A stretch of DNA of 62,651 bases from Candidatus Magasanikbacteria bacterium CG1_02_32_51 (lineage in GTDB: Bacteria > Patescibacteriota > Patescibacteriia > Magasanikbacterales > UBA922): the NCBI GenBank assembly GCA_001871435.1, contig MNVC01000012.1, positions 1-62,651 of the forward strand, in the 5' to 3' direction. A model generated the notes under the pieces. That model did no database searches, was not told where the DNA came from, and worked only from the letters and a program-made list of their open reading frames with translations. Position numbers and translations under genes: made by a program. Positions 813-51,179 of the stretch are shown piece after piece. Numbering within the stretch: the first letter of the stretch is position 1; each line of letters starts with the position of its first letter.

Positions 813-840
813 TTGACTTTATTTTCGCATATGTTACTAT
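813..840 (+). promoter_or_regulatory. Sigma70-type promoter candidate of GC-rich cassette 1
   Basis: TTGACT (813-818), 16 nt spacer, TACTAT (835-840). Confidence 0.4.
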
Positions 841-915
841 TCGACTAACCTTTTGTTTGGAGAGTTGCACGTGTGTGTGATGATCTGACCTGGGGAATTC
901 TCAAGTGAAGGAATA

Positions 916-1611
916 GTGATGAAAACGATGAATACGATCTTTTACTGCGCCATCTTCATGTTTGGTTGTTATCAAAGTAGGGACGAGTCTGAGGTTCAGA
1001 CCAAGAACTACTTGATCAACGTCGACATGACGAATAGCGGTGACTTCAGTGCAGTCCTCCCTGATGGCACGTTCTATAACGACATGGAGTCGTTCAATGA
1101 GAACATGGAACCGACCTACGAACAGCTCGCTGACGAAGGCACGGACATCCAGTTCGAGTTCGGCGATAACATCCAGGAGCAGCTCGACATCGATCTGGTC
1201 AACTTCATCCCGTCGCATACTGATGATTCGTCGGACTGTAATAGCAAAGACGGTCTTCAAACGATCGTGAGTCCTTTGTACATCGGAGGCGGGTATAATC
1301 TGACCACATCTTTCGGGTGGAAATATATCGCGGGCTGCATCAAGAGAAACGTCTATCGACTCGCGATTCACCTCAACAAGTACAGCTATCAGGTATTCGA
1401 CTTACATGCCGCCTTCTATAGGGAGAGCGGTAAGGTATGCTTCGGCCTGTACGAAAGCGTCAGTGGGTGGAAGTCATGCAACTGTAACCCTACCTACAGC
1501 CAGATCAAGGGCTGGGTGGTTGAGGTGGCAATCGTCGCGGGCGTCTCGGTGGGAGTGGCCACGATCATCGCCAACATCGTCACGCCACTCATCTTTATGA
1601 TGGCTATCTAG
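916..1611 (+). CDS. Hypothetical lipoprotein with a C-terminal TM anchor, in GC-rich foreign-looking cassette 1
   Basis: Lipobox-like FMFGC near the N-terminus and a hydrophobic C-terminal helix (VAIVAGVSVGVATIIANIVTPLIFMMAI). AAGGA lies 6 nt before ATG 919. G/C-ending codons contrast with the neighbours. No family recognised. Confidence 0.55.
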   Translation: MMKTMNTIFYCAIFMFGCYQSRDESEVQTKNYLINVDMTNSGDFSAVLPDGTFYNDMESFNENMEPTYEQLADEGTDIQFEFGDNIQEQLDIDLVNFIPSHTDDSSDCNSKDGLQTIVSPLYIGGGYNLTTSFGWKYIAGCIKRNVYRLAIHLNKYSYQVFDLHAAFYRESGKVCFGLYESVSGWKSCNCNPTYSQIKGWVVEVAIVAGVSVGVATIIANIVTPLIFMMAI

Positions 1612-1641
1612 TTCAAAACTAGAAAATGTCCGTCGTTTCAG

Positions 1642-1678
1642 TCCTCTTGTCTGTACATTGTATGTATAGACAAGAGGA
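1642..1678 (+). terminator. Hairpin terminator of cassette 1
   Basis: TCCTCTTGTCT ... AGACAAGAGGA, an 11-bp perfect stem. Confidence 0.55.
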
Positions 1679-2486: not shown

Positions 2487-4040
2487 GTGATGTTTTATAA
2501 TAAATTTTGTATGTTCAAAAAATCTTTTTTATTCGTTGGTGTTGTACTATCTTTGTTAGTACCTTTTTTGGTTAGAGCTGAAGTTAATAATGATGCTATT
2601 AGCATAAACAATTTTTCAGCAACAATTTTTTCTGATAATTATGTACAGGTTGGCAAAAAAATAATTTTTGATTCTAGTAAGTCTGTTTTACCAAATAATA
2701 TTTCTAATCAAACATATTATTGGAAATTTGGTGACCAAAGTTACGAATATGGTGGGGAAGTTGTTCATAATTATAGTAATATTGGTACTTACAATGTTGA
2801 ATTAGACATTTCTTATACTGATGGAAATGGACAAAGACAAACACTGACTAGTACAAAAGAGATTTTTGTTTATGATACTAGAGCACTGATGATTGTAGAT
2901 GGAAAAAATACAGATGAAATAAATTTGATAGTTGATCAAGCCAAAGAGCAGGGTATTGCTTTGCAAGTATTGTCGCCTGGTACTGAAGAAGAGGTTTTTA
3001 CTTCAGAAGATGTTCTTGTTAAACTTATTGGTGAAAATAATCAGTATGTCAAAAATTCTGATATTATATTATTTTATACTAAGTCTTTGCGTGGTTTACA
3101 AGCCTTTACTCAATACTTTCAGTCTTTGAATGATTTGGATAAAGAATTAGTTCGTAGCAAATTTTTTACAGTAATCACTAGTGGAAATATTTCTGTGGTT
3201 ACTCACGGAGTATATCAAAATTACAAAATTATTAATCCAAGTTATATTTTGTTAACTAGACCAGAGTCCCTCGTGCCAATTTTGAGTATCAAAAAAATAG
3301 ACGACATAGAAACATCGCTTTTTGGTCGTAGTATAGAATTTGTACATGTTGATGGTTCGAGTAGCAAAAACGGTTGGTATGTTTTATCTACTTTGGTCAA
3401 CTACTTTATTGAGAGAGGCGTACCTGCTGACAGTATTTATCTTATTTTAATAATTCCATTTTTGTCTTTTTTAATTATATTTTTTCGTAATGTTGTTGGT
3501 ATTAACACTTTTGGTATATTTACTCCAATTATAGTTACTATTGCTTTTTATATTTTGGGTTTGTCACTAGGATTGTTGACGTTCTTTTTGGCTGTGGTGG
3601 TTAGTCAGATAGTTAAGTATCTTTTTGATAAAGTAGAATTGCTGAACTTATCCAAGGTTGGTTTGAACTTGTCATTTATTTCAATTTCTTTTTTATTTTT
3701 GATTGCTGTTGTCTTAAAATTAAATTTAGCATTATCTTTGACCGCGACAATTTTCCCAATGCTTGTGATGACAACTTTGTCAGAAAAATTTATGGATGCA
3801 AAATTGGAAACTGGTTTTAAGAGTGCTCTTTTTGGAGTCTTAGAAACTTTATTTGTAATTTTATTATCTTATTATTTAATGGTTTGGTCAGCTTTCAACA
3901 ATTTACTTATTTCTTGGCCAGAAATAGTTTTGTTTCCAATTTTCTTTATGTTTTTACTTGGCAAGTTTACAGGTCTTCGTGTTAGTGAATATATTAGATT
4001 TAGAAGTTTATTTTTGAATCATACTGGTGAAGAAGAATAA
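2487..4040 (+). CDS. Signal peptide + PKD domain + C-terminal 7TM module (7TM_transglut/UUP1-like membrane protein)
   Basis: N-terminal hydrophobic signal. PKD-like YYWKFGDQS...VVHNYSNIGTYNVELDISYTDGNG. C-terminal multi-TM block with GINTFGIFTPII, typical of the 7TM partners of RimK-related ligases. The start could be 2490 or 2511. Confidence 0.65.
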   Translation: MMFYNKFCMFKKSFLFVGVVLSLLVPFLVRAEVNNDAISINNFSATIFSDNYVQVGKKIIFDSSKSVLPNNISNQTYYWKFGDQSYEYGGEVVHNYSNIGTYNVELDISYTDGNGQRQTLTSTKEIFVYDTRALMIVDGKNTDEINLIVDQAKEQGIALQVLSPGTEEEVFTSEDVLVKLIGENNQYVKNSDIILFYTKSLRGLQAFTQYFQSLNDLDKELVRSKFFTVITSGNISVVTHGVYQNYKIINPSYILLTRPESLVPILSIKKIDDIETSLFGRSIEFVHVDGSSSKNGWYVLSTLVNYFIERGVPADSIYLILIIPFLSFLIIFFRNVVGINTFGIFTPIIVTIAFYILGLSLGLLTFFLAVVVSQIVKYLFDKVELLNLSKVGLNLSFISISFLFLIAVVLKLNLALSLTATIFPMLVMTTLSEKFMDAKLETGFKSALFGVLETLFVILLSYYLMVWSAFNNLLISWPEIVLFPIFFMFLLGKFTGLRVSEYIRFRSLFLNHTGEEE

Positions 4041-6492: not shown

Positions 6493-7869
6493 ATGCCAGA
6501 AAAAGAAATATTTAAAACAGCTTATATTGTTACAGTCGATATGGGTTATGGTCATCAAAGGGCTGTATATCCTTTGCATGATATGGCTCAACAAGTTCCA
6601 GAATTGTCTATGGCAAACCATGGAATTATAAATGCCAATTTGTATGGTGGTATAAATAAAAGTGATCAATTCAAATGGGATACTGGTCGTAGTATTTATG
6701 AAAAAATATCTAGACTAAAGCATTTGCCTGTAGTTGGTAGTTATATCTTTAGTTTTATGGATTATTTGCAACGTATAGAGCCATTTTATCCACAACGTGA
6801 TTTGTCACGTCCTACTTTGCAGGTAAAACAAATTTTTGGCATGATCAAAAATGGTTGGGGAAAAGATTTAATAGACAAACTTAACAAATTAGAACATTTA
6901 CCTTTTGTTACTTCATTTTTTACCACAGCTTTTTTTGCTGAAGAACACAATTATAAAGGTGATATCTATTGTATTTGTACAGATACTGATATTAGTCGAG
7001 CTTGGGCACCATTAGAACCAAAGCTTAGCCGTATCAATTATTTAGTACCTACAAGAAGAGTCAAAGAGAGATTAGAATCTTATGGTATCAAAAAGGACAA
7101 AATATTTATTACTGGTTTTCCTTTGCCAAAAGAAAATATTGGTGGTCCAAAATTAGAAATTTTAAAAAGTAGTTTGGCCAAACGTATTGTCAATTTGGAT
7201 ACAGAAGGTCGTTATCGTTCCAAATACAAATATACTATGACCAAATTTTTGGGCACAAATCTTTGTTCAACAAAATTTAAATCTGACCATCCTTTGACTA
7301 TTACTTTTGCAGTAGGTGGGGCTGGTGCTCAGCGTGAATTGGGAGCTGAAATTGCGGGTAGTCTGAGAGAAGAAATTTCTAAAGGAAAAATATGCTTAAA
7401 TTTAGTTTCTGGCATACGAAATGATGTTTTTCGTTATTATCAAGCAGTATTTCAAGATTTGGGTTTGTCTGACAAAATAAATAAAAATATTTTTCTTATT
7501 TATTCAGCAGAATCAAAATTTGATTATTTTTCAAAATTTAATAGTGTACTTAATACTACAGACATTTTGTGGAGTAAGCCTAGTGAACTATCTTTTTATG
7601 CTGGTTTGGGATTACCAATTATTATTGCTCCAACTATTGGTTCACAAGAAGAATTCAACAAAGATTGGTTGACTTCAATTGGGGCTGGTGTGATGCAAGA
7701 AGATCCAAGATATACTAATGAATGGCTCAAAGATTGGTTGGCTTCTGGTTGGTTGGCTGATGCTGCTATGAATGGTTTTCTCAATGCTCCTCGTAATGGT
7801 ACTTATCATGTAGAAGATATTGTCTTGCGTAACAAGAGAAGTGAAATAGAAGATATGCACTTGTTTTAG
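6493..7869 (+). CDS. GT-B glycosyltransferase, GT28 UgtP/MGDG-synthase-like
   Basis: N-terminal VDMGYGHQRA, central AVGGAGAQRE, C-terminal SKPSELSFYAGLGLPIIIAPTIGSQEEFN. This resembles the UgtP KPGG...PGQEKEN pattern. Confidence 0.55.
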   Translation: MPEKEIFKTAYIVTVDMGYGHQRAVYPLHDMAQQVPELSMANHGIINANLYGGINKSDQFKWDTGRSIYEKISRLKHLPVVGSYIFSFMDYLQRIEPFYPQRDLSRPTLQVKQIFGMIKNGWGKDLIDKLNKLEHLPFVTSFFTTAFFAEEHNYKGDIYCICTDTDISRAWAPLEPKLSRINYLVPTRRVKERLESYGIKKDKIFITGFPLPKENIGGPKLEILKSSLAKRIVNLDTEGRYRSKYKYTMTKFLGTNLCSTKFKSDHPLTITFAVGGAGAQRELGAEIAGSLREEISKGKICLNLVSGIRNDVFRYYQAVFQDLGLSDKINKNIFLIYSAESKFDYFSKFNSVLNTTDILWSKPSELSFYAGLGLPIIIAPTIGSQEEFNKDWLTSIGAGVMQEDPRYTNEWLKDWLASGWLADAAMNGFLNAPRNGTYHVEDIVLRNKRSEIEDMHLF

Positions 7870-9065: not shown

Positions 9066-10061
9066 ATGAAATTTTTGAAATTTGTGTTAATTTTTCTTTT
9101 AATTATAATTTTTTTAATCTATATTTTTTTGTGGGTTAGTAGCTACAAAAAATATTTAGTTGATTTTGGTGTTTCTTTTAGTAAAGAACATGCCATTTAT
9201 TTGGGTTTAGACTGGAAAAAAGTTTATGAGAGTGTTTTAATGGATCTAAAACCAAAATATATACGTTTATCAGCTCCTTGGAATAACATTGAAAAAAACA
9301 AAGGTAGTTTTGATTTTAGAGATATGGATTATATGATGAATGAAGCAAAAAAAGCTGGAATAAAAGTTACTTTGGTGGTTGGACAAAAAGCACCACGTTG
9401 GCCAGAATGTTATGTACCGAATTGGGCTATCAAACTTTCTGTCAAAGAATATCAAGATAGTCTAAACAATTATTTAACCCAGATTGTAAATAGATACAAA
9501 AATAATTCAGCTCTAGAATTGTGGCAAGTAGAAAATGAACCATTTATAGATTTTAAATTTGGAGAATGTGTTAATTTTAGACCTGACTTAGTAGATGAAG
9601 AAATAAAATTAGTAAGTTTTTTGGACCAACCACATTGGACAATTGTTACAGATAGTGGTGAGTTGGGTTGGTGGAAGAAAGCTTCACAATTGAGTGATTT
9701 ATTTGGTACAACTCTATATAGAGTGGTGCGTAGTCCAAATGGCATGGTGTGGACTTATGATTGGCTACCGCCAACTTTTTATCGTTACAAAGCTATCCTA
9801 AATGGTATACACTTAGAAAGTATGTATGTTTCTGAGCTACAAGCTGAGCCATGGTTTACAGACCTTGGTCCAAATGAAACACCAATACCAGAACAAATGA
9901 AAACTATGAATATTAAAAGACTAAATAAAAATATTGATTTTGTGGAGAGGATTGGTATTGGTCGCGCTTATTTGTGGGGTGTGGAATGGTGGTATTGGCT
10001 GAAAGAAAAAAATAATGATAGTAGTTATTGGAATTTTGTTAAAGAATTAATGATTAAATAA
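9066..10061 (+). CDS. Membrane-anchored TIM-barrel glycoside hydrolase (clan GH-A, GH5/GH42-like)
   Basis: N-terminal TM helix. WQVENEPF (acid/base NEP motif) and SELQAEPW (candidate nucleophile Glu). Confidence 0.5.
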   Translation: MKFLKFVLIFLLIIIFLIYIFLWVSSYKKYLVDFGVSFSKEHAIYLGLDWKKVYESVLMDLKPKYIRLSAPWNNIEKNKGSFDFRDMDYMMNEAKKAGIKVTLVVGQKAPRWPECYVPNWAIKLSVKEYQDSLNNYLTQIVNRYKNNSALELWQVENEPFIDFKFGECVNFRPDLVDEEIKLVSFLDQPHWTIVTDSGELGWWKKASQLSDLFGTTLYRVVRSPNGMVWTYDWLPPTFYRYKAILNGIHLESMYVSELQAEPWFTDLGPNETPIPEQMKTMNIKRLNKNIDFVERIGIGRAYLWGVEWWYWLKEKNNDSSYWNFVKELMIK

Positions 10062-11576: not shown

Positions 11577-12827
11577 TTATGTGGCAAAAGAAAACAATTG
11601 TTGTTGTGTGTAAATTTGTTCTACATCTTCTTCGGCTATTTCACCTTCTAGCATTTGTATAAGTGTATTCCCAATATGATAACCAAGATTTACAGGTACG
11701 GCATTACCAATTTGTTTGTATTGTTGAGAGATAGAGCCTGAAAATTTCCAATCATCAGGGAATGTTTGAATTCTAGCATATTCACGTACTGTGAGAGGGC
11801 GAGTTTCTTCAGGATGACATCGTTCTGTTTGCTTTTGTGCTGGACTACATGTCAACGTAAGTGAAGGTTCCTCCCAAGAAAGTCTTCTAGCCATACCAGT
11901 TTTTCCACCACCCATGTAAAAGCTTGCCCCCATATATTTTTTTTGTAAATCTTCAGGTAAATTTCTCCAATAACCACCAGGAGGTATAAGATCTAAAATG
12001 TTTTTTTTATGTTCTGGATATTTTTGACCTTCAGATTTTGGACATTTGTGTAAAGCCTCGCGTAGAGGAATTATATAATCCTTTTCTTTAGGAAATGAAA
12101 TTGGTATATTCAAATCGTTTCTTACTCCAATGATAATTAGACGCTCTCTTTTTTGAGATACATCTAAATATTGTGATCTAAGAACTTTATATTTAACCTT
12201 GTATCCCAATTCTTCTAAAACAGAGACCATTGTTTTTAGAGTTCTTCCACCATCGTGATTTAATAATCCCTTTACATTTTCTCCGACTGCAATTTTTGGT
12301 TTTACTTCTTTTACACATCTAGCAAACTCAAAAAATAAAGTTCCTCGTATATCTTCGAATCCCATCTTTTTACCAGCATAGGAAAAAGTTTGACATGGAA
12401 AACCTCCTTGCACAATATCAGCTTGTCCTTCCTCAAATTTTAGATTTCGTACGTCGTCTTCAACTACGTTCCAATCTGGTCTGTTTGTCCTTAATGTTTC
12501 ACAGGCGTGTTTATCATATTCGTTTAATAGGATATGCTCAATACCTGCATTTTCCATTCCTATGGCCGTTCCCCCCGCACCTGCAAATAACTCAATTGCT
12601 GTATATGATGATTTCTTTTTATTTTTTAAAATTTTGAATTTGTTTGTTTTGCTACCAGATTTATTTTGGATTCTTTTAATTTCATCTAGTAAAAACATTC
12701 TGTCATTTCTATCATTTCGAAAAGATTTAATCAAACCGGATTTGTCCCAGCGTCTGATAGTATCAATAGATATGTTTAGTAGGAGGGCAGTCTCGCCAGC
12801 TGTAAAATATTTTTTTGTACTTTTCAT
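11577..12827 (-). CDS. DNA (cytosine-5)-methyltransferase with an N-terminal MerR/excisionase-type HTH
   Basis: Motif I FAGAGG, motif IV GGFPCQTFS, motif VI ENV, motif VIII QKRERLIIIG, motif X GNAVPV. N-terminal FTAGETALLLNISIDTIRRWDKSGLI. Confidence 0.92.
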   Translation of the reverse strand: MKSTKKYFTAGETALLLNISIDTIRRWDKSGLIKSFRNDRNDRMFLLDEIKRIQNKSGSKTNKFKILKNKKKSSYTAIELFAGAGGTAIGMENAGIEHILLNEYDKHACETLRTNRPDWNVVEDDVRNLKFEEGQADIVQGGFPCQTFSYAGKKMGFEDIRGTLFFEFARCVKEVKPKIAVGENVKGLLNHDGGRTLKTMVSVLEELGYKVKYKVLRSQYLDVSQKRERLIIIGVRNDLNIPISFPKEKDYIIPLREALHKCPKSEGQKYPEHKKNILDLIPPGGYWRNLPEDLQKKYMGASFYMGGGKTGMARRLSWEEPSLTLTCSPAQKQTERCHPEETRPLTVREYARIQTFPDDWKFSGSISQQYKQIGNAVPVNLGYHIGNTLIQMLEGEIAEEDVEQIYTQQQLFSFAT

Positions 12828-12890
12828 ATAAAAAATGATAGTGGATTAAGTTATCATTATTATATCATATAACCATTGCCTATGTGAAGG

Positions 12891-13592
12891 TTATTCTGTG
12901 GAAAAAGCCATTTTGAATAATTTGTGATACTCTTTGCTTTCTTGTTTATTCAATTTATAATTGTGTTTGTCAGCAATAACCTGGGGGATAATGTCAAATA
13001 ACTCAAGAAGTGCATTTTTTCTTCCAGTTGTCATTTCATAAAAACTAACGCCATCAATTACTCTTATTTTGTTTTTTGCTGGACGTCTTTTTCCTTTTTC
13101 AGATGGTGTAAATGGTTTATCATATTTTTTTCTTCTTTTTGAGATTACTTCGACATAATAGCCAGTATAACCAGTATATTCATAATTTTTGAGAGTATTT
13201 TTTATGTCGTCATATAACTTTACTAAATGGTTTCCTTTTGTGGTGTTGTATTTATTTTTGACTTCAGCAATTATTTTCATTTTTTTATTTATGACATCTA
13301 AACCACCTCCTGTGCCAAGGTTTTTCCAACCAGAAATTGAACCTAAAATATCTTGGTGAAAATCACCTATAGAATTTTGCATTGTTTTTTGAGTTTGTCT
13401 AGCTTTTTCTTGTTCCATCCAATCTGTATAAGGTATAGATTTTGTAATTCCATGGAACAAAGCAGAAAATGGGTCTATTACATTTTTATGTATGTTGACT
13501 TCTGCATCCTGTTCAGCTTTTTCAATTACATTTATAACTTTACTAACAGCAGAAATTAAATTTTTGTCAGAAATAAATTTTAGGTAAGGCAT
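12891..13592 (-). CDS. Candidate type II restriction endonuclease (PD-(D/E)xK) partner of the m5C methyltransferase
   Basis: Directly upstream and co-oriented with the methyltransferase. GGGLDV...IIAEVKNKYNT fits D...ExK. A resemblance to the Eco47II/Sau96I family is recollection only and unverified. Confidence 0.5.
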   Translation of the reverse strand: MPYLKFISDKNLISAVSKVINVIEKAEQDAEVNIHKNVIDPFSALFHGITKSIPYTDWMEQEKARQTQKTMQNSIGDFHQDILGSISGWKNLGTGGGLDVINKKMKIIAEVKNKYNTTKGNHLVKLYDDIKNTLKNYEYTGYTGYYVEVISKRRKKYDKPFTPSEKGKRRPAKNKIRVIDGVSFYEMTTGRKNALLELFDIIPQVIADKHNYKLNKQESKEYHKLFKMAFSTE

Positions 13593-28598: not shown

Positions 28599-28652
28599 TT
28601 TGTAAGCAGAATAGGCAAATTAAGCAGAATAGGCAGAATAAGTATAATTGAA

Positions 28653-28904: not shown

Positions 28905-29545
28905 GAAGGACATGAAGATTTTAGGCTGGTACTTTAGTACCAGTAAAAAATGTAGTTTATGTAGTCCCAGAGGGACGATTGATGAAAATATGTCAGATAC
29001 TTTTTCAAAATTATTTTTTCATGTTGTTTTCAGTACCAAGGAAAGGATAAAATTTCTTAAACCAGATTTGAGAGTTAGACTCTTTGAATATATGGGTGGA
29101 ATAGCTAAAAATAATAATTTTCAAACAGTATTTACAAATGGTACAGATGACCATTTACACACATTATTATTATTGAAGCCAAATATAGCTGTATCAAAAG
29201 CTGTCCAGCTTTTGAAAGGTGGTTCTTCAAAATGGATACATGATAATTTTTTAGATTTGAAAATGTTTACTTGGTAGAGTGGTTTTGGTGCTTTTTCTGT
29301 TAGTCATTCCCAGGTTGAAAAAGTTATAGAATATATTTCAAAGCAGGAAGAACATCATAAAAAAATGGATTTTAAAGAGGAATACAAAAAACTATTGAAA
29401 ATAAATAATATAGATTATAAAGAACAATATTTATTTTAAACATGTAGTTCATTCGTCCCTCTGGGACTAAATATTATTATAATTTATATACGGGTACTGA
29501 AGTACCCGCCTAAATACTTATTGTCCCTCTGGGACTTGTTTATAG
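28905..29545 (+). mobile_element. IS200/IS605-superfamily Y1 (RAYT-like) unit with REP-like flanking hairpins
   Basis: 5' flank: CTGGTAC-ttta-GTACCAG and GTCCC-aga-GGGAC. 3' flank: GTCCC-tct-GGGAC (twice) and CGGGTAC-tgaa-GTACCCG, in inverted order around the HUH gene. Confidence 0.65.
28990..29439 (+). pseudogene. REP-associated tyrosine transposase (RAYT / IS200-like TnpA), inactivated
   Basis: FFHVVFSTKER, HUH motif DDHLHTLLL, KGGSSKWI. In-frame TAG at 29275-29277 falls where W-Q-x-G-Y-GAFS is expected (reads W-stop-S-G-F-GAFSVS). The frame continues to ...QEEHHKK...TAA 29437-29439. Confidence 0.7.
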
Positions 29546-30801: not shown

Positions 30802-30830
30802 TTGACAAATTTGGCTTTTTTTTGTAGTCT
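30802..30830 (+). promoter_or_regulatory. Promoter candidate of GC-rich cassette 2
   Basis: TTGACA (30802-30807), 17 nt spacer, TAGTCT (a weak -10). Confidence 0.35.
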
Positions 30831-30864
30831 TATTTTTGGCTCTCAAGAAAAAGGAGAATGAGCC

Positions 30865-31098
30865 ATGCCGAATCAGGAAATAGATGGTGTGATCCTTGAA
30901 ATTTTGCAGACATCACCTACACAAGGTGGTGCTTGCAATGAGATTATGAACTTTTATAGTCAAAAGCTCGACAACAAGATGCGATGGTTGACTAAGCCGA
31001 TGGTTATTTATCACCAAAATGGTGAACGGCGTGCGTTTCTTAGACTAGTAAAAGAGAATGGTCAATCTCTGACCGTCTCAGTAAGGATCCCTGTCTAG
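30865..31098 (+). CDS. Hypothetical 77-aa protein, GC-rich cassette 2
   Basis: AAGGAGA lies 7 nt before the ATG. G/C-ending codon usage is unlike the neighbours. No motif recognised. Confidence 0.5.
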   Translation: MPNQEIDGVILEILQTSPTQGGACNEIMNFYSQKLDNKMRWLTKPMVIYHQNGERRAFLRLVKENGQSLTVSVRIPV

Positions 31099-31124
31099 TA
31101 TTCGCGTTTATAAACTGTGCTGGT

Positions 31125-31154
31125 TTGATCCCCCAAAGGATTTAACCAGCACGG
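31125..31154 (+). terminator. Hairpin after cassette 2
   Basis: CTGTGCTGGTT ... AACCAGCACGG (one G-T pair). No clear T-run. Confidence 0.4.
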
Positions 31155-31200
31155 TTAGTTACTTATTATAAAATAAAAAAATTATCAAAAGCCTTACAGA

Positions 31201-34372: not shown

Positions 34373-36163
34373 TTATCTCTTTAGAACTGCCAAATAAGCC
34401 TCAGTCGGAATAGTCACTTTTCCTTTATTCATACTCATCATTTTCTTTTTTCCTTTTTTCTGGCGATCAAGTAATTTATTTTTTCGTGTTACATCACCTC
34501 CATACAATTTTGCGGTTACATCTTTTCTGAGGGCTGAAATGCGTTCGCTCGCAATAATTTTTCCTCCAATGGTAGCTTGAATTTTGATTACAAATTGTTC
34601 ACGATCAAGTGTATCTTTTAATATCTCAACAATTTTTTTACCTGCTCGATATGCGTCATCTTGCCAGACTAGGGTCGCAAGCTCTTCTACTACTTCGTCT
34701 GCAATCATAATGTCAAGTTTTATCACATCTGTTTTTTTGTATTCTTTGTATTCATAATTCAAGGATGCATAACCACTAGAAACACTTTTCAGTTTATCAT
34801 AAAAATCAGTAATAAGCGAGGCAAGTGGTGTTTCATAATGGAGTATTGCCCGTTGTCCAGCTCCGGTACTCAAATATTCAGTATTTTTGTAAATACCTTT
34901 GCGTTCGGCTATGAGTCCCATAATGTTTCCAATAAATTCTTGAGGAGTAATAATGTCAACAGTCATCCAAGGTTCTTCTATGTGTTCAATTTTCTGTACT
35001 TCAGGTAAATCTTGTGGACTTTTGATCGTGAGATTTTCTCCATTGGTTTTGAAAACATTATAGGCAACACTGGGGATGGTCGCGATAATGGAAAGTCCAA
35101 ATTCACGCTTTAATCTTTCCTGAAAAATTTCAAGGTGAAGCATACCAAGGAATCCACAACGGAATCCAAAACCAAGTGCTTGTGAGTGTTCTGGTTCATA
35201 ATAGAGTGCTGAGTCACTTAGTTTTAATTTATCTACTGCATCACGAAGATTATTATATTCATCTCCTTCGCGTGGAAAAATGCCGGCAAAGACCATGGGT
35301 TTTACTTCTTTATATCCGGGCAATTGTTCGGTCGCGCCATTTTTGGTCAGGGTAATTGTATCACCCACACGCACTTCACCAAGCACTTTCACTCCACTCG
35401 TCACATAGCCAATTTGTCCATTTTCTAGTATTCCGTCAGAGCTCATTTGTGGAGCAAAGTGACCAATATCAAGTACTTCACCTTTGGCACCTGTTCCCAT
35501 GAATGTCACTAAGTCACCTTTTTTTAGTGCGCCATCTTTCATCCTAATTGCAGCAACAATTCCACAATAATCATTATAGAGAGAATCAAAGATTAATGCA
35601 CGTGGAGGTTTGTCAGAAGTTTCAGCCGGTGGTGGAACTTTTTTAATAACTTCATCTAACAATTCTGGAACACCTTGTCCTGTTTTTCCTGAGCAGGTAA
35701 GAATATCTTCTCGTTTACATCCCAGAAGATGAATAATTTCTGCTGAGACTTTGTCTGGATCAGCATTTGGTAAATCAATTTTGTTCATGACAGGAATAAT
35801 TGTGAGATCTTGATCAATTGCAAGATAAAGATTGGCAATGGTTTGTGCTTGGACACCCTGACTTGCATCAACAAGAAGAATGGCGCCTTCAACAGCAGCA
35901 AGTGAGCGGGATACTTCATAGGTAAAATCCACGTGACCGGGAGTATCAATTAAATTCAGAGTATAGCCTTTGTATTTCATACGCACGGGTTGGAGTTTGA
36001 TCGTGATGCCACGTTCTTGTTCAAGTTCCATTTGGTCAAGCAATTGGGCATGCATGTGACGTTTGTCAACAGTATTGGTAATTTCAAGAAATCGATCCGC
36101 GAGGGTCGATTTGCCATGATCAATATGGGCGATGATACAGAAGTTGCGAGTGTTGTTTAACAT
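34373..36163 (-). CDS. lepA: Translation elongation factor 4 (LepA)
   Basis: NFCIIAHIDHGKSTL, DTPGHVDF, NKIDL, and the LepA C-terminal domain. Confidence 0.96.
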   Translation of the reverse strand: MLNNTRNFCIIAHIDHGKSTLADRFLEITNTVDKRHMHAQLLDQMELEQERGITIKLQPVRMKYKGYTLNLIDTPGHVDFTYEVSRSLAAVEGAILLVDASQGVQAQTIANLYLAIDQDLTIIPVMNKIDLPNADPDKVSAEIIHLLGCKREDILTCSGKTGQGVPELLDEVIKKVPPPAETSDKPPRALIFDSLYNDYCGIVAAIRMKDGALKKGDLVTFMGTGAKGEVLDIGHFAPQMSSDGILENGQIGYVTSGVKVLGEVRVGDTITLTKNGATEQLPGYKEVKPMVFAGIFPREGDEYNNLRDAVDKLKLSDSALYYEPEHSQALGFGFRCGFLGMLHLEIFQERLKREFGLSIIATIPSVAYNVFKTNGENLTIKSPQDLPEVQKIEHIEEPWMTVDIITPQEFIGNIMGLIAERKGIYKNTEYLSTGAGQRAILHYETPLASLITDFYDKLKSVSSGYASLNYEYKEYKKTDVIKLDIMIADEVVEELATLVWQDDAYRAGKKIVEILKDTLDREQFVIKIQATIGGKIIASERISALRKDVTAKLYGGDVTRKNKLLDRQKKGKKKMMSMNKGKVTIPTEAYLAVLKR

Positions 36164-36281
36164 AATTTGTATAATAGTTACTATGCTATTTTAGCAGTTT
36201 TTTTCTACTTTAGCAATCCTTGACAAAGTCTCTATTGCACTGTGCCAGAGGGAATAAAAACAAAAAAAGAGAGGGAAAAAA

Positions 36282-36887
36282 GTGTCAGACAACTATCGTG
36301 AGCAGGCTTTGGCTTTGTTCAAGGAAGGAGATATAGTAACCTTCAATGTTTTGTGCGAAGAACTTGAAGATCAATTACTAAATCTCAGCAAAGGAAAGAT
36401 CACTGTTGAGACCTTCCAGTCCTTCTTCAAGAATCCCAACAAGTTTTTCGAGGAGAATGGTTTTCCAGTCTCGATCAACTATACAATGTTGCTCGAGGAT
36501 ATGATCAAGGTCGGTTGCTATGACTGGTGGGATGAGCACATCACATCCAGGAATTTCCAGTTCATCGGCGAGGGTGTTGTGAATATGAGGCTCCATCTTG
36601 TATGCTTCATGCTCGCGGCCACGACCAAGAGGATCAAGAATCATCTCGATTCTCTCGGTCTCAAGCCAGCGAAGCTCGAGCATCTTCTTGCATTCGGGTC
36701 AAAATACCCGATTAGCCAACGGAACTTCCCAATTATTGCTTTTGGCTCTAGTTGGGTTGACCACGACGGTATTCAGACCTTTCCCTGCCTCGACGAGAAT
36801 AAAGTCAAACGTCGTCTTGTTTTGGGTTACGACTGGCCTGACCGTGAATGGGGTAGCTTCTGTCGGTTCCTCGCGTTCAGCAAGTAG
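36282..36887 (+). CDS. Hypothetical 201-aa protein, GC-rich cassette 3
   Basis: GTG start with GAGGG 6 nt upstream and TTGACA at 36220-36225. G/C-rich codons; long shadow ORFs on both strands. No motif recognised. Confidence 0.5.
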   Translation: MSDNYREQALALFKEGDIVTFNVLCEELEDQLLNLSKGKITVETFQSFFKNPNKFFEENGFPVSINYTMLLEDMIKVGCYDWWDEHITSRNFQFIGEGVVNMRLHLVCFMLAATTKRIKNHLDSLGLKPAKLEHLLAFGSKYPISQRNFPIIAFGSSWVDHDGIQTFPCLDENKVKRRLVLGYDWPDREWGSFCRFLAFSK

Positions 36888-36922
36888 CGCTTGGATCCAT
36901 CAGAGTGATATTACTGACATTA

Positions 36923-36983
36923 GGCCGACACGCACTATGCGTAGTCGGCCAAAACTTAAAAAACACGAACTAATCGTGTTTTT
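36923..36983. terminator. Two hairpins after cassette 3; the second is a bidirectional terminator shared with murJ
   Basis: GGCCGACACGCA cta TGCGTAGTCGGCC, then AACACGA acta aTCGTGTT followed by TTTT. Confidence 0.6.
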
Positions 36984-37000
36984 TAATTTGAAAATATTTT

Positions 37001-39565: not shown

Positions 39566-40243
39566 CTAATCACTTGGTACATTGACAGTCACTGACATAT
39601 AGTCAGTATATTTGGTATCTTGGTTATCCACAGTATAAAGTACTCCAGTTATATTTTCAGCATTTTCTGAAAAAGTGAATTCTTTAATATCTTTGTTGTC
39701 ACTTTCTTGCCCTATTTCAAAACCTTTCTTTTTTAGTTCTGTTTTGTAGTACTCAAGTAAGAAATCTTGGGTAGCATCTAATTCTATCCATTCTATTTTA
39801 TAAATATCTCTTTCATCAGACAAAGGTTTTTGCATAAAGGAAATTAGTTTATCAATATTGGTCATTTTTTCATTTTCTGGTTTTGTCCTAGGAATATATT
39901 TATTATTTTTATCAAAGTAAATTATAAAAGGGGATAAAACTAATTTTGGTAAGAAGGCGGTTCTTTCTATTTTTGTACTTTTTTCTTTACCAGAAGTATG
40001 ACTAATTTTTTCAATATTGTTTACATCGTAAATAGGAATTTTGTTAGTAAAATTTTCTGGTAAATCTTTTAGTTCTTTACTGGTTGGACCAAAAGAAAAC
40101 TTCAATAATAGTATAGAAATAATAAAAAGTATAGTAAAACAACCACAACCAGTAGCACAGCTAGATTTTAGGCAGGATCTTTGTTTGTTTAGCTCTTCTA
40201 TTGGTGGTTCTTTTATTTTGATTTTGTCGATTTCTTGACGCAT
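39566..40243 (-). CDS. Hypothetical membrane-anchored protein
   Basis: Cys-rich segment plus TM (SCATGCGCFTILFIISILLL), then a soluble domain. No family recognised. Confidence 0.45.
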   Translation of the reverse strand: MRQEIDKIKIKEPPIEELNKQRSCLKSSCATGCGCFTILFIISILLLKFSFGPTSKELKDLPENFTNKIPIYDVNNIEKISHTSGKEKSTKIERTAFLPKLVLSPFIIYFDKNNKYIPRTKPENEKMTNIDKLISFMQKPLSDERDIYKIEWIELDATQDFLLEYYKTELKKKGFEIGQESDNKDIKEFTFSENAENITGVLYTVDNQDTKYTDYMSVTVNVPSD

Positions 40244-40464: not shown

Positions 40465-41820
40465 ATGAAGATACACTTTAGTGGAGCAGATGGTGAAGTT
40501 ACAGGTTCTTGTCATCTTTTGGATACTGGCAAAATGAAAATTCTTATTGATTGTGGAATGTTTCAAGGTGGAGATTTCAATGAAGGACTTAATCATGATG
40601 TCTTTCCTTTTGATCCAAAGGAAATTGATGTACTCTTGGTAACTCATGCTCATTTGGATCATATTGGACGTATTCCAAAACTTGTCAAAGATGGTTTTGG
40701 TGGCAAAATTTATGCTATCAAAGGTACAAAAGACTTGATGCCACTTATTTGGTATGATGCCTACAATATTATGGCTTATGATAATCGTAAATTTGGTTAT
40801 CCTGTGTTATTTGACGAAGTAGATGTGGCTGAAGCTCAAGCTCTTTGTCATGGACTAAATTATCATGAGGAATTGGATCTTGGTAATGGTGTCAAAGCTA
40901 TTTGGAAAGATGCTGGCCATATTTTTGGTTCAGCTTTTATTGAAATTACTGTAGGTGACAAGAAATTTGTTTTTTCCGGAGATATTGGTAATGAAAATGT
41001 TCCAATTTTGAAAAATACTGAAAGTATTAGTCCAGATGTGGACTATGTTATTTGTGAATCTACTTATGGTAATCGTATCCATGAAGGTACTGATGTTAGA
41101 AAGAATATTATATCTAATTTAATAATAAATAGTGTCAAAAGAGGAGGTACAATTATGGTGCCAGCTTTTTCTCTTGAACGTACACAAGAATTTCTTTATG
41201 AATTGAACGAAATCAGTGAATATGATCATAATTTGCCAAATGTGCCTATTTTTCTTGATAGTCCTTTAGCAATTGATGCTACCAAAGTTTACAAAAAATA
41301 TCCAGAATATTATGATGAAGAAGCCCAAAAGTTGCATCTAGATGGTGATGATTTTCTCAATTTTCCTCAGCTTCAAGTGACTTATGGTAAAAGAGATTCA
41401 CAAAAAATAAATCATACTCCAGGTCCAAAAATGGTGATTGCTGGTGCTGGTATGATGAATGGTGGTAGAATATTGCATCATGCTCTAAGATATTTGTCTG
41501 ATCCCAATTCTACTCTTATTATTGTTGGTTACCAGGCTTATGGTACTTTGGGTCGAAAAATTTATGAAGGTCAAAAACATGTCAAAGTAATGGGAGAAGA
41601 TGTTGAGGTTAGGTGTACTATCAAAGCTATTGGTGCTTTGTCTGCTCATGGTGATCAAATTAAATTATTAAAATGGTTGGGTACTGACAAAAAAAGATTA
41701 AAAAAAGTATTTTGTGTACATGGTGAAGATGACGCTCTGACAGTTTTTGCTGGTAAAATAAAAAGCGATTTGAAAATAGAGGCTTATATACCAAAGTATG
41801 GTGAAGTGGTGGAAGTATAA
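40465..41820 (+). CDS. MBL-fold beta-CASP family ribonuclease (RNase J/CPSF-like)
   Basis: HAHLDHIG motif 2, beta-CASP motifs, C-terminal SAHGD and VHGE. Confidence 0.8.
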   Translation: MKIHFSGADGEVTGSCHLLDTGKMKILIDCGMFQGGDFNEGLNHDVFPFDPKEIDVLLVTHAHLDHIGRIPKLVKDGFGGKIYAIKGTKDLMPLIWYDAYNIMAYDNRKFGYPVLFDEVDVAEAQALCHGLNYHEELDLGNGVKAIWKDAGHIFGSAFIEITVGDKKFVFSGDIGNENVPILKNTESISPDVDYVICESTYGNRIHEGTDVRKNIISNLIINSVKRGGTIMVPAFSLERTQEFLYELNEISEYDHNLPNVPIFLDSPLAIDATKVYKKYPEYYDEEAQKLHLDGDDFLNFPQLQVTYGKRDSQKINHTPGPKMVIAGAGMMNGGRILHHALRYLSDPNSTLIIVGYQAYGTLGRKIYEGQKHVKVMGEDVEVRCTIKAIGALSAHGDQIKLLKWLGTDKKRLKKVFCVHGEDDALTVFAGKIKSDLKIEAYIPKYGEVVEV

Positions 41821-41830
41821 TTTTTTTGAA

Positions 41831-44236
41831 ATGGATAAACATAAATTCAAATTAAAATCCAAATATAAACCAGCAGGATCTCAGCCTGAAGCTATAAAAG
41901 GTTTAGTTTTTGGTTTACAAAAAGATTATAAGAATCAAACCTTACTTGGTGTGACTGGCTCAGGTAAGACTTTTACAGTAGCTAATGTAATTGAAAAAGT
42001 TCAAATGCCAACATTAGTGATTGCTCACAATAAGACTCTTGCAGCTCAACTTTGCAATGAGTTTCGGGAATTCTTCCCAGATAATGCTGTGGAATATTTT
42101 GTGTCATATTATGATTACTATCAGCCTGAAGCATATATGCCAGGCAGTGATACTTATATTGAAAAAGAAGCCCAGATAAATGAAGAAATAGATAGGCTCC
42201 GTCATGCTTGTACACAAGCTTTGATTACTCGTAGTGACGTGATTGTAGTAGCTTCTGTTTCGGCAATTTACAATCTTGGTAATCCATTAGATTATGAAAA
42301 AACAGTTTTACATCTTGAAGTCGGACAAAATTTGGATAGACGAGGGATGCTTGAAAAACTTGTTTCTATGCAATTTGATAGAAATAATACAGAGTTGAAG
42401 AGAGGACAATTCCGGATGCGTGGGCAAGTCTTTGAAATAATGCCAGTCAATGAAGAATTGATTTATCGTTTTGAAATTAGTGATAAAATTGATTTGATAG
42501 AAATAGTAGATCCTATTACAAGAAATATTTTGAGTAGTTCAACAAGAGGTTCTTCGACTTCCACTTCGCTTCGCTCAGGGTCGCTCAGGACAAACGTTCT
42601 TTCAGACGTTTGGTTTTTCCCAGCTAAGCATTATGTAATAAATGAAAATGAACAGTTGCAAGCTTTTTCAACTATTGAAAATGAACTAAAAGATAGGTTA
42701 GAATTTTTTAAAAAACATAGTAAGGCTCTAGAATATGAAAGATTGAAAAGAAAAGTAAAATATGATTTGGAAATGATCAAAGAAGTTGGTTATTGTAGTG
42801 GTATAGAAAATTATTCTCGCCATTTTGATGGACGTAAAGAAGGTGAACCGGCTTTTACTTTGATTGATTATTTCAAATATGCTGCCGGGACCTCACCAGC
42901 TTCGTCTGGGTCGGAGTCGACCTCTCCTAATAGGAGAGGTGCTGACGTTGTCAAAAACAAGGGATTTCTTACCATCATAGATGAGTCACACGTTACTTTG
43001 CCACAAATTCGTGGTATGTATTTTGGAGATAAGGCTCGTAAAGAAAATTTGATAGAACATGGCTTTAGATTACCAAGTGCTTTGGATAATCGTCCACTTA
43101 TTTTTGATGAATTTATTAATAGAACCCAAAAAACTATTTTTGTGTCTGCTACTCCCGCAGAATATGAAATTAAAAATAGTGGTCAAGTCGTGGAACAAAT
43201 TGTTCGTCCAACTGGACTAATTGATCCAGAAATTATTATTTGTTCAGTGACTGGTGGCAAAGTTCTCCCCCTAGTAGGGGGAGTTACCCTCCCAAGGCGG
43301 GTCCGCCTAGGGTGGAGAGGGGGTCTGCAAGCAAATGAAAACGTTGTAACTCAAGATGGACCCCTCCCAACCTCCCCTAATAGGGGAGGAGTTTCTAGGT
43401 CACAAGTTGAGGATGTCATGGAGCGTATCCAAGTTAGAGTGAAGCAAGGTGAGCGTACTTTGGTTACAACACTAACAAAACGCATGGCAGAAGATTTGAG
43501 TGACTATCTAAAAGAACAAAAAATAAAAGTTGAATATCTGCATAGTGATATCAAGACAATTGAAAGAATTGAAATTATAACCAAACTTCGCAAAGGTGAA
43601 ATAGATGTAATTGTTGGTGTCAATTTGCTTCGTGAAGGTCTGGACATTCCAGAAGTATCTCTCGTGGCAATTCTTGATGCTGACAAAGAGGGTTTTTTAC
43701 GTAATGAGACAAGTCTAGTCCAGACTATTGGTCGGGCCGCACGTAATGTCAATGGTCAAGTAGTAATGTATGCTGATGAAATGACGAAGTCTATTGATAG
43801 GGCTGTTTTTGAGACCCAGAGACGTCGTGAGATTCAGTTGGCTTATAATAAAAAACATAATATTACTCCAAAAACTATTGAAAAAAATATCCGTAATATT
43901 TTGGAAGAATTTGGTCTCACTAGTACAAGTATCAAAAATACCAAAACAAAAAGTAACAGACGTGATAGGAGTATTTTGAATCTAGATATTATGGGAGATG
44001 CTAGACCTCTCAAAGAAATAATTAAAGAAAAAGAATTCAAGATGCGTGAAGCTGCAACAAAATTGGAATTTGAATTAGCTGCTTTATTGCGTGATGAAGT
44101 TAGAGAATTAAAAGCTAGAGAGAAGACGGGGGATAGTCGGAAGTCTGGGAAGTCCATTCCACCAAAGGTGGACTCGTCTACGCGAGAAAGTCGAAAGTCA
44201 CAAAAGCTAAAAAGTAAAATTGTTAAATATTTATAA
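41831..44236 (+). CDS. uvrB: Excinuclease ABC subunit B, with four GC-rich repeat-derived insertions
   Basis: GVTGSGKTFT, DESHVT.PQ, helicase motifs, UVR domain (AA..LEFE.AA.LRDE). About 130 aa longer than typical UvrB. Confidence 0.96.
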   Translation: MDKHKFKLKSKYKPAGSQPEAIKGLVFGLQKDYKNQTLLGVTGSGKTFTVANVIEKVQMPTLVIAHNKTLAAQLCNEFREFFPDNAVEYFVSYYDYYQPEAYMPGSDTYIEKEAQINEEIDRLRHACTQALITRSDVIVVASVSAIYNLGNPLDYEKTVLHLEVGQNLDRRGMLEKLVSMQFDRNNTELKRGQFRMRGQVFEIMPVNEELIYRFEISDKIDLIEIVDPITRNILSSSTRGSSTSTSLRSGSLRTNVLSDVWFFPAKHYVINENEQLQAFSTIENELKDRLEFFKKHSKALEYERLKRKVKYDLEMIKEVGYCSGIENYSRHFDGRKEGEPAFTLIDYFKYAAGTSPASSGSESTSPNRRGADVVKNKGFLTIIDESHVTLPQIRGMYFGDKARKENLIEHGFRLPSALDNRPLIFDEFINRTQKTIFVSATPAEYEIKNSGQVVEQIVRPTGLIDPEIIICSVTGGKVLPLVGGVTLPRRVRLGWRGGLQANENVVTQDGPLPTSPNRGGVSRSQVEDVMERIQVRVKQGERTLVTTLTKRMAEDLSDYLKEQKIKVEYLHSDIKTIERIEIITKLRKGEIDVIVGVNLLREGLDIPEVSLVAILDADKEGFLRNETSLVQTIGRAARNVNGQVVMYADEMTKSIDRAVFETQRRREIQLAYNKKHNITPKTIEKNIRNILEEFGLTSTSIKNTKTKSNRRDRSILNLDIMGDARPLKEIIKEKEFKMREAATKLEFELAALLRDEVRELKAREKTGDSRKSGKSIPPKVDSSTRESRKSQKLKSKIVKYL

Positions 44237-44377: not shown

Positions 44378-44656
44378 TTATTTCTTCAAAGCATCTTTCA
44401 ATCCTTTTCCAGCTTTAAATTTTGGAACAGTGACTGAAGGGATTTGAATTTTTTGACTTGGTTTCTGTGGGTTTACACCTATGCGTCCAGCACGTACTTT
44501 GGCACTGAAAGCTCCAAAACCTGAGATAGTGACTTCGTCACCACTCTGTAAAGTTTTGATTACAATTTCTACAAAAGAGGCAAGTATATTTTCTGCTTCT
44601 TTTTTGGATATACCAACTTGCTCAGCGATTTTTTGAGCCAATAACGCTTTGTTCAT
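44378..44656 (-). CDS. hup: HU-family DNA-binding protein
   Basis: MNKA.L...IAE....SKKEAE......GFG.F....RAGR.G.NP.....I.IP HU pattern. Confidence 0.92.
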   Translation of the reverse strand: MNKALLAQKIAEQVGISKKEAENILASFVEIVIKTLQSGDEVTISGFGAFSAKVRAGRIGVNPQKPSQKIQIPSVTVPKFKAGKGLKDALKK

Positions 44657-44752
44657 ATTGTTTTTAATTAGTCCCTATTTTTTAGGGTGAATTATTTTAT
44701 GTCTATATTTTATAATAATATGTAAAAAGTGTCAATAGAGCCAAAAGCTTTG

Positions 44753-44851
44753 CTAATTTAGGAATTTTGAATTTTAAAATTTTGAAAAAATAATTTGAAA
44801 TTAAAACATTAAGAAATTGTTTTAAAATTTAAAATTACTAAATTAAAAATT
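44753..44851. repeat. Family E AT-rich element pair (inverted)
   Basis: CTAATTTAGGAATTTTGAATTTTAAAATTTTG ... GAAATTGTTTTAAAATTTAAAATTACTAAATTAAAAATT. Confidence 0.65.
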
Positions 44852-44913
44852 AAAAATAACCCTATATTTCAAGGATTATTTTTTAAAGATAAATTTTCTT
44901 CAACTAAAACATC

Positions 44914-46440: not shown

Positions 46441-46783
46441 AAAATTAAATTATATATTATTAAATTAAATTATTTTAGTAATAAAAAAATCTCTCAACTA
46501 CAGAGATTTTTCAAAAATTTTGATAATTTTTTGGCTTAAAATAACTATTTTTTACCTTTTATTTTGTTTTTTTGATTATTTTAAGCTATTGTTTTTACAA
46601 ACAATTTTTTAGAAGAATGAATAGTTTTGGCAGTTTTTGAGACGTTTTCAAACATAATTTGGTAATAATAAGCAAAAAATTTGCTAAACTAACTATAATT
46701 CTAGTATCAACATTTTTGTCAATTTCTATAGTTTTTACTTATAAAATGATATCATAATTGAATATTTTTGTCAATTTTATGTA

Positions 46784-47461: not shown

Positions 47462-47503
47462 AAATTAACCTTTTATAAGTAATTTTTAAAATTTATCTAT
47501 TCA

Positions 47504-47545: not shown

Positions 47546-47599
47546 GCTGAATATGTTGCTATTTCAAATACCACGTTTACTATGGTATAATATTTTGAT

Positions 47600-51160: not shown

Positions 51161-51179
51161 TTTTGGTTATTTTGGACAC

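Follow-up and report, generated by a model that had tools for sequence, protein, structure and literature searches.

A predicted lipoprotein gene with persistently GC-rich synonymous sites and a conserved small partner in an AT-rich Magasanikbacteria genome

Morons, as described by Hendrix and colleagues, lie between the genes of a prophage; each is a single gene that has a deviant composition and is flanked by a promoter and terminator of its own. In the GC-rich genomes of Streptomyces, rare TTA codons together with the bldA tRNA gate translation. In the Bacteroidia, whose ribosomes are blind to the Shine-Dalgarno (SD) sequence, rpsU is the single gene with a strong SD sequence, and its translation is carried out by ribosomes that lack bS21 (PMC7797042, PMC9976891, PMC13000453). 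Ancient gene transfers escape detection as their GC content and tetranucleotide frequencies become recipient-like (PMC12455944). A deviant GC content or codon usage is routinely taken as a sign of recent horizontal gene transfer (HGT). Here we analyze a stretch of 62,651 nucleotides from Candidatus Magasanikbacteria bacterium CG1_02_32_51 (contig MNVC01000012.1), referred to as the window, and in particular a GC-rich single-gene unit near its start, cassette 1, which encodes a predicted lipoprotein and is followed by a small partner gene. For cassette 1 the reading as recent HGT fails, because the deviation is conserved in orthologs, is synonymous only, and ends at an AT-rich neighbor. The evidence points to a maintained synonymous-site anomaly tied to a conserved, uncharacterized gene pair. 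An actively maintained odd composition is harder to explain than recent HGT.

Anatomy and composition of cassette 1

The closest comparison is with locus L001, from a 42% GC genome, which carries an ortholog of the cassette 1 gene (68% amino acid identity) at a syntenic position. The parts of cassette 1 and the partner gene that follows it are listed here, with GC3 denoting the GC content of third codon positions.

813 to 840, + strand: predicted sigma-70-type promoter from a consensus scan (TTGACT at 813 to 818, 16 nt, TG-extended TACTAT at 835 to 840)
841 to 907, + strand: 5' leader of ~67 nt, conserved between the window and L001
908 to 912, + strand: SD sequence AAGGA, 6 nt before the ATG at 919
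919 to 1611, + strand: coding sequence (CDS) of the predicted lipoprotein, 230 amino acids (aa), stop codon at 1609 to 1611
1641 to 1679, + strand: 3' stem-loop of 18 pairs (folding z score of −4.9) with a weak T tail, a terminator or mRNA-stabilizing hairpin
1713 to 2018, + strand: partner gene, 101 aa, GC3 of 0.25, without an SD sequence, with the motif YIFxGW..R..FHG..DF..QE

An original prediction, made from the window alone, had described a self-contained unit of promoter, SD-bearing leader, one open reading frame (ORF), and hairpin. Prediction and conservation together uphold this description, and the hairpin is present but is 18 bp in length rather than the 11 bp proposed. By itself, the match to the promoter pattern is no more than AT-rich DNA would give by chance (4 matches versus 3.6 expected); conservation of 86% at the orthologous locus of L001 supports a promoter function. 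The leader had no match in Rfam, even at an E value of ≤1, and its fold is not significantly more stable than those of shuffled sequences (z scores of −0.6 and −1.6). The z score for folding of the whole transcript is −4.8, in part due to the terminator hairpin. A noncoding RNA was considered and rejected: Rfam gave no match, either at the gathering score or at an E value of ≤1, and the substitutions relative to L001 (0.20, 0.17, and 0.41 at the three codon positions), together with a ratio of nonsynonymous to synonymous substitution (dN/dS) of 0.19, indicate that cassette 1 is protein coding and under purifying selection.

The window has a mean GC content of 0.327 (standard deviation, 0.054), and positions 851 to 1700 form its longest and strongest GC stretch, in which all 200-nt windows have a GC content of at least 0.42, with a peak of 0.56. 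This sliding-window result confirms the composition switch that had been seen by eye at about 845 to 1690. The ORF at 919 to 1611 has a GC content of 0.50, with 0.44 at first positions (GC1), 0.35 at second positions (GC2), and a GC3 of about 0.72 versus 0.16 to 0.34 in the native genes of the window, so that the codons do end mostly in G or C, as predicted, and G-ending and C-ending codons are both enriched. An index similar to the codon adaptation index (CAI), computed against native codon usage, was 0.28 for this ORF versus 0.70 ± 0.06 for native genes (native minimum, 0.55). Long shadow ORFs, which had also been expected on both strands, were found at 901 to 1371 (− strand), 1040 to 1270 (+ strand), 1406 to 1600 (+ strand), and 1474 to 1683 (− strand). 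The amino acid usage of the product (K/(K+R) of 0.69, FYMINK of 0.35, and GARP of 0.17) matches that of native proteins (0.72 ± 0.10, 0.34 ± 0.04, and 0.19 ± 0.04, respectively). The GC excess of cassette 1 is purely synonymous, with GC1, GC2, and amino acid composition native. The predicted folding energy is −0.33 kcal/nt for the GC-rich CDS and −0.21 kcal/nt for a native gene, which makes the former ~50% more stable per nucleotide.

The style of translation is likewise unlike that of the native genes, as had been proposed, in combining an SD sequence with GC-rich codons. SD-like cores precede the genes of all four cassettes that the original prediction had named in the window (cassettes 2 to 4 are described below) and 2 of the 47 native genes (Fisher's exact test, P = 6e-5), in agreement with the claim that native genes here almost never have one. 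TATAAT-like boxes lie 5 to 12 nt before many native start codons, without an SD sequence (for example, in 39566 to 40243, 47600 to 48526, and 34373 to 36163). Because these boxes sit just before the start codons, most native mRNAs appear to be leaderless or to have very short leaders.

A sharp compositional switch can also be a product of assembly, and this switch is the one thing that speaks for a chimera or for contaminating GC-rich DNA. Four independent assemblies (ENA ERZ909571, Logan SRR1534154, JGI 3300014060, and ENA ERZ909569), which represent three sequencing runs or samples, agree fully (100% identity) over the junctions of cassette 1, and orthologs with the same neighbors occur in other genomes; the chance of an artifact is thus negligible. 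The window DNA as a whole is 100% identical in Rifle groundwater assemblies and 99.8% identical in NCBI GCA_002784905.1, and few strain single-nucleotide polymorphisms separate the Rifle and Crystal Geyser sequences.

The excess extends into the untranslated regions (UTRs), with a GC content of 0.44 in the 5' UTR and 0.38 in the 3' UTR versus 0.26 in native intergenic DNA, and the GC boundaries roughly match the transcript. These features, and the synonymous nature of the excess, would fit a local mutational or repair bias without selection, such as GC-biased gene conversion at a hotspot or a transcription-coupled bias. Such a bias gives no reason why one small gene should be a hotspot across many genomes and loci, and neither flanking repeats nor recombination signals were found; we consider it improbable.

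Conservation of the locus and persistence of the contrast

Downstream of cassette 1, the window and L001 share the same gene order, consisting of the 101-aa partner, a DUF6938 protein, EamA, a glycoside hydrolase, and a permease. Nucleotide identity between the two loci is not uniform, being highest over the regulatory parts.

Promoter: 86%
67-nt leader: 82%
CDS: 74%, with 64% at synonymous third positions
Flanking DNA: 45 to 55%, with ~50% upstream of the −35 box

The L001 ortholog has an SD sequence and its neighbors do not. This sequence is GAGGTG, in the same place as AAGGA in the window, and local identity there is just 21%; most loci of the family carry AGGAG, GGAG, or AAGGAGG. Compensatory changes preserve the 3' stem in L001, where its sequence is 56% identical.

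The original prediction had read cassette 1 as a recent import and had itself named an ortholog of like composition at the same locus as evidence to the contrary. L001 has such an ortholog, with the same deviant composition, and the protein composition is native; recent import is therefore rejected, and cassette 1 is, judging from these comparisons, a long-resident chromosomal gene.

The contrast in composition between the lipoprotein gene and its partner recurs in other genomes, as the following GC3 values illustrate.

Window: lipoprotein gene about 0.71, partner gene 0.25
L001: lipoprotein gene 0.80 (neighbors ~0.40), partner gene 0.31
L025: lipoprotein gene 0.66, partner gene 0.23
L017: lipoprotein gene 0.77, partner gene 0.22

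GC3 is higher in the lipoprotein gene than in the partner gene at 10 of 10 loci, and the orthologs in L001, L025, and L017 share the native AT-type amino acid composition. Between clades with high GC3, codons for identical amino acids agree at 44 to 56% of their third positions, which is about what codon bias alone would produce, and synonymous sites are therefore saturated. Native neighbors compared between the window and L001 have a proportion of synonymous differences (pS) of 0.69 to 0.81. Under a neutral two-state model with an equilibrium GC3 of 0.21 (the native value), a starting GC3 of 0.80 to 0.90, and 0.5 to 1 native synonymous substitutions per site per lineage, GC3 is predicted to have fallen to 0.24 to 0.36, versus the observed 0.71. 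Because the contrast with the AT-rich partner persists past synonymous saturation, a gene-specific directional force appears to keep cassette 1 GC rich.

These values also bear on the idea that the ancestor of these lineages acquired the gene once, long ago, from a GC-rich donor that used SD sequences, with amelioration still incomplete. Such an event would account for the foreign style of the gene (SD sequence, long leader, and GC-rich codons) and for a GC3 that is lower in the AT-richer host (0.71 in the 33% GC window and 0.80 in 42% GC L001). Amelioration should, however, erase a deviant GC3 first and an amino acid bias last, and the opposite is seen, with GC1, GC2, and amino acid usage native while GC3 is not, which contradicts a reading as import. 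The neutral model does not reach the observed GC3, the co-inherited neighboring partner is fully AT rich, and synonymous saturation between clades points to a stable high GC3. We therefore give an ancient import little credence.

The predicted lipoprotein and its small partner

Word-based searches of 5.8 billion proteins recovered one close relative of the cassette 1 product, at 68% identity. A HMMER search with a two-sequence profile yielded 112 representative clusters at an E value of ≤1e-3, mostly of 200 to 260 aa; a first scan of GTDB with the two-sequence profile returned no match. The lipobox cysteine, C17 (FMFG-C17 in the window), is kept in at least 90% of 38 family members. The residue before it is usually G, A, or S across the family, and the residues at −3 and −2 in the window product (M and F) are not canonical. 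Residues C140, H163, C174, Y178, and C189 are invariant in the family, whose C terminus is hydrophobic and ends in AP....LAL; in the window product, the hydrophobic stretch spans residues 196 to 230. An AlphaFold2 (AF2) model built with the family alignment (predicted local distance difference test [pLDDT] score, 85; predicted template modeling score, 0.76) comprises an alpha/beta N-terminal domain, a five-stranded beta C-terminal domain, and two C-terminal helices, with an N-terminal helix at residues 4 to 13 and a C-terminal helix at 211 to 229. Taken together, sequence and model agree with the originally predicted membrane-anchored lipoprotein bearing a lipobox (FMFGC) and a C-terminal hydrophobic helix, and the product is best described as an extracytoplasmic protein that would be tethered at both ends, by a lipid at the N terminus and a helix at the C terminus, and that carries a conserved Cys/His constellation. 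No genes for Lgt or LspA were seen in the 62.6-kb window.

No family in Pfam, NCBIfam, PHROGs, or PADLOC matched the partner or the product of any of the four cassettes. For the lipoprotein, nothing significant was returned by a sequence-profile search of the PDB or by Foldseek against the PDB and BFVD, the best PDB fold match having an E value of 0.13 and a template modeling score of 0.18. Both members of the gene pair defined here are uncharacterized, and its lipoprotein has no detectable relative of solved structure in these searches. The partner lacks a signal peptide and is presumably cytoplasmic; its single-sequence AF2 model (pLDDT score, 48) was unusable.

The tblastn searches placed the partner immediately after the family gene in L001, L015, L016, L017, L024, and L025, which with the window makes 7 loci. 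ORFs that resemble the partner at the motif level only follow the family gene in L013, L018, and L020, so that a lipoprotein gene followed by a homologous or motif-similar partner of ~100 aa was found at 10 of 10 loci resembling those of the candidate phyla radiation (CPR). Amino acid identities for the two proteins are as follows.

Window versus L001: lipoprotein 0.69, partner 0.71
L025 versus L017: lipoprotein 0.77, partner 0.78
Cross-clade pairs: lipoprotein 0.47 to 0.56, partner 0.36 to 0.49

As these pairwise identities, judged over about ten loci, track each other, the lipoprotein and its partner appear to have been inherited together as an old two-gene module. In L020 (5192 to 11721) and L013 (3809 to 7153), the pair sits in a neighborhood of HU, RNase Y, TruB, IF-2, and thioredoxin genes. 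Immediately upstream of infB in the equivalent neighborhood of the window (44378 to 54310) lie a methyltransferase, a transketolase, and cassette 4, and the pair is found instead at 813 to 2018.

L013 (CAZMHV010000001.1, 1 to 12684) contains four GC-rich single-gene islands (GC content of 0.56 to 0.59) within 12.7 kb. It is filed as a metagenome-assembled genome of the Gammaproteobacteria, yet its RNase Y, HU, and SD-poor, AT-rich genes are like those of the CPR-type loci, and it is possibly misclassified.

Proposed selection and a rival, recurrent replacement

We propose that cassette 1 is an old resident whose GC-rich state is held by selection at the level of the mRNA or codons, coupled to SD-dependent initiation, an explanation to which we assign an even chance. 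The lipoprotein gene would be the first gene of the old co-inherited module and would have its own transcription unit. The property under selection may be a stable mRNA that is poor in AU-rich cleavage sites and spurious initiation sites; alternatively, translation may be gated by the supply of tRNAs for G/C-ending codons. Selection is favored because the excess is synonymous, reaches the UTRs, and accompanies an SD sequence and a conserved leader. From the anatomy, conservation, synonymous excess, and persistence described above, we infer that the force is most likely selection on the mRNA or its codons.

Several observations weigh against this proposal. The comparison covers only about ten loci, and relatives were compared for cassettes 1 and 3. 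The contrast in GC3 is mild in L015, L016, and L024, where the lipoprotein gene has a GC3 of 0.38 to 0.50. A selected RNA structure was not found: z scores of the minimum free energy relative to synonymous permutations ranged from +1.2 to −2.7, with −1.8 for a native control. Ordinary translational selection for high expression was tried and rejected, with dnaK having the lowest GC3 in the window (0.16; range for dnaK and grpE, 0.16 to 0.21) and with G-ending and C-ending codons alike enriched in cassette 1. The family members in L013 and L018 have a GC-type amino acid composition, as true imports would, and the same is true of P0114 in L023, the sole homolog of the cassette 3 product. The pair also occupies differing chromosomal positions, near HU, RNase Y, TruB, and IF-2 in L020 and L013 and elsewhere in the window, and HGT is reported to be frequent in Patescibacteria (PMC12455944).

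Some of these points favor the main alternative, which is possible but, in our view, doubtful, namely, recurrent HGT. As a surface gene with a fast turnover, the lipoprotein gene would be overwritten through homologous recombination by alleles from GC-richer CPR relatives, with the promoter and leader on one side and the partner on the other as recombination anchors, and repeated overwriting would leave the gene always looking foreign. The relocation of the pair between genomes, the GC-type proteins in L013 and L018, and the reported prevalence of HGT are in line with this, as are a lipoprotein gene that is compositionally native in the 51% GC, CPR-like L020 and a window-L001 pS that is lower in cassette 1 (0.56) than in its neighbors (see above). 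In contrast, the proteins of the window, L001, L025, and L017 have an AT-type composition, and the divergence of the lipoprotein is congruent with that of the adjacent partner. Synonymous divergence is also near that of the partner (0.36 versus 0.47 between the window and L001 and 0.40 versus 0.30 between L025 and L017), and each replacement would have to stop within the spacer of 50 to 115 nt between the two genes.

Phage and mobile elements

The original prediction had suggested a phage as one source of the cassettes. This was not sustained for cassette 1, which has no phage genes nearby and for which no phage relatives were found. For cassettes 1 and 3, tblastn against 50,697 phage records and 72,556 plasmids gave no match and scans of IMG/VR gave no locus; there was no PHROG family and no fold match in BFVD. 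Cassette 1 resembles a phage moron in being, by prediction, an autonomous promoter-ORF-terminator unit with a composition unlike that of its neighbors. It differs in that it does not lie in a prophage, its neighbors including a response regulator, hrcA-grpE-dnaK-dnaJ, lepA, murJ, and infB; in having no phage relatives; and in occupying the same locus in relatives rather than being variably present.

Other mobile systems were rejected as well. An integron cassette does not fit a unit that has its own promoter, and the cassettes are dispersed singletons without intI whose 3' hairpins share no sequence. A target of a diversity-generating retroelement would have a matching template repeat nearby, and no part of any cassette recurs in the window. 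A repeated mobile element or miniature inverted-repeat transposable element would be expected to show repeats, and the four cassettes share none.

Of the features of a horizontal island, cassette 1 has the deviant composition, whereas a patchy distribution and donor-type amino acid usage were not found. Like the HGT islands of Patescibacteria (PMC12455944), it combines an atypical GC content in a groundwater CPR-type genome with a nearby transposase fragment and, in L001, an upstream tRNA; unlike them, its deviation is synonymous only, is present in orthologs with saturated synonymous sites, and ends at the border of the AT-rich partner. Possible signs of mobility near cassette 1 are the tRNA-Trp upstream in L001 and the following fragment; flanking repeats are absent.

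1 to 263: 3' portion of an rve_3 (integrase-core) transposase ORF that runs in from beyond the start of the window and ends ~100 nt short of the response-regulator gene ahead of cassette 1

In L001, at 9402 to 9812 just upstream of the ortholog, the 5' half of tRNA-Trp is duplicated over 38 nt, with a GIY-YIG endonuclease gene (9489 to 9737) between the two copies, in what looks like a small mobile insertion beside a tRNA. At 12119 to 12565, 1.1 kb downstream of the pair, L001 also has a GC-rich islet with a 114-aa ORF on the − strand (GC3 of 0.67), which by tblastn has no relation to cassettes 2 to 4.

Three further cassettes and a possible second style of translation

The layout of cassette 1 had been predicted to recur at three other sites in the window.

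30802 to 31156, + strand: cassette 2, with TTGACA at 30802 to 30807, AAGGAG at 30851 to 30856, an ORF at 30865 to 31098, and a hairpin at 31113 to 31156
36220 to 36986, + strand: cassette 3, with TTGACA at 36220 to 36225, GAGAGGG at 36269 to 36275, an ORF at 36282 to 36887, and hairpins at 36923 to 36950 and 36956 to 36986
51180 to 51601, + strand: cassette 4, with TTGACA-17-TATACT at 51180 to 51208, AGGAG at 51310 to 51314, an ORF at 51322 to 51522, and a terminator at 51575 to 51592 followed by a T run

The TTGACA box, SD sequence, 3' hairpin, and outlying codon usage were indeed found at all three sites, with CAI-like values that all lie below the native minimum of 0.55, but a good −10 box is missing from cassettes 2 and 3. 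The view that the four cassettes are of one kind holds for their style and not for a common sequence or origin, since they share no DNA, repeats, or protein similarity. Cassette 2 encodes a 77-aa soluble protein and deviates modestly (GC3 of 0.42, CAI-like index of 0.47), with no −10 box passing the scan. Cassette 4 encodes 66 aa with a single N-terminal transmembrane helix and an acidic tail (GC3 of 0.66, CAI-like index of 0.35). Cassettes 2 and 3 are present in GCA_002784905.1 at 99.8% identity and cassette 4 is present in JGI 3300014060.

The ORF of cassette 3 starts with GTG and encodes 201 aa (GC3 of 0.59, CAI-like index of 0.36). Its homolog P0114 (43% identity; E value of 3e-31), which is called on the corresponding strand, lies in another context on the SD-poor contig of L023, within a GC-rich island (GC content of 0.59 versus 0.43 to 0.48), and has an SD sequence and a canonical terminator. 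Because P0114 is likewise GC rich, SD led, and terminated, the syndrome seems to travel with the cassette 3 family too. Public gene calls place a 101-aa antisense ORF at 36378 to 36683 (− strand) instead of the cassette 3 ORF; as homology to P0114 supports the + strand, the antisense annotation is probably wrong.

A broader conjecture, which we regard as unlikely, is that SD-poor, AT-rich CPR genomes keep a few genes in a second "translational dialect" of long leader, SD sequence, and G/C-ending codons, selected for separate gating. By analogy, the gate could be the availability of the anti-SD tail, as for rpsU and bS21 in Flavobacteria, or the supply of tRNAs for G/C-ending codons. If this were true, the four cassettes would form one posttranscriptional regulon and not a set of imports. 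That the dialect is suited to expression in a GC-richer host cell is far less probable still.

The likeness to the Bacteroidia, in function the nearest parallel, lies in a nearly SD-free genome with a few strong-SD genes, which in Flavobacterium mark a specially regulated class. The phylum and the genes are different, and GC-rich codons are no part of the Bacteroidia case, so that the comparison is one of analogy and not of membership. As with bldA in Streptomyces, genes here are marked by codons that are rare in the genome; unlike in that system, the shift in cassette 1 affects nearly every codon and no dedicated tRNA has been linked to it. Genes for tRNAs that read G-ending codons were found in L013 (Glu-CUC, 7192 to 7264), L017 (Ser-CGA, 3393 to 3483), and L020 (Lys-CUU, 596 to 672), which indicates that decoders for the enriched codons are kept in these organisms; two of these three loci are AT rich, L020 having a GC content of 51%. 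Limited literature searches did not turn up an earlier account of SD-led genes with a persistently high GC3 in SD-poor CPR genomes. If selection maintains the state of cassette 1, it would imply codon- or mRNA-level regulation in ultrasmall, SD-poor, genetically intractable bacteria, and GC3-rich, SD-led genes would offer a computational handle on the regulated set.

Genomic context

The window encodes a response regulator, a PKD/7TM protein, an ATP-grasp/MATCAP protein, an Eco47II-type restriction-modification pair, bacA, gpsA, a MacB-type ABC transporter, yidC, and hrcA-grpE-hsp20-dnaK-dnaJ. Further genes encode RNase H, recJ, lepA, murJ, corA, uvrB, HU, RNase Y, and truB, a transketolase, infB, thioredoxin, an ECF sigma factor, and leuS. 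Neither tRNA genes nor Rfam families were found in the 62.6-kb window. The groundwater source, the gene content, and the SD-poor genes are in line with a CPR/Patescibacteria-like organism. The Eco47II-type endonuclease and its companion, a C5 cytosine methylase that carries a MerR/HTH domain at its N terminus (11577 to 13592, − strand), break synteny with L001, in which BacA comes after the permease. An IS200-like Y1 transposase gene lies between dnaK and dnaJ at 28912 to 29277, and an 18-bp indel at 28603 to 28620 separates the window from the NCBI strain. UvrB (41798 to 44236) has 812 aa and contains a G/R/P/L-rich insertion of ~50 aa (GGKVLPLVGGVTLPRRVRLGWRGG...) at 43250 to 43400, where a local GC peak of 0.54 reflects an excess at codon positions 1 and 2 and not at position 3.

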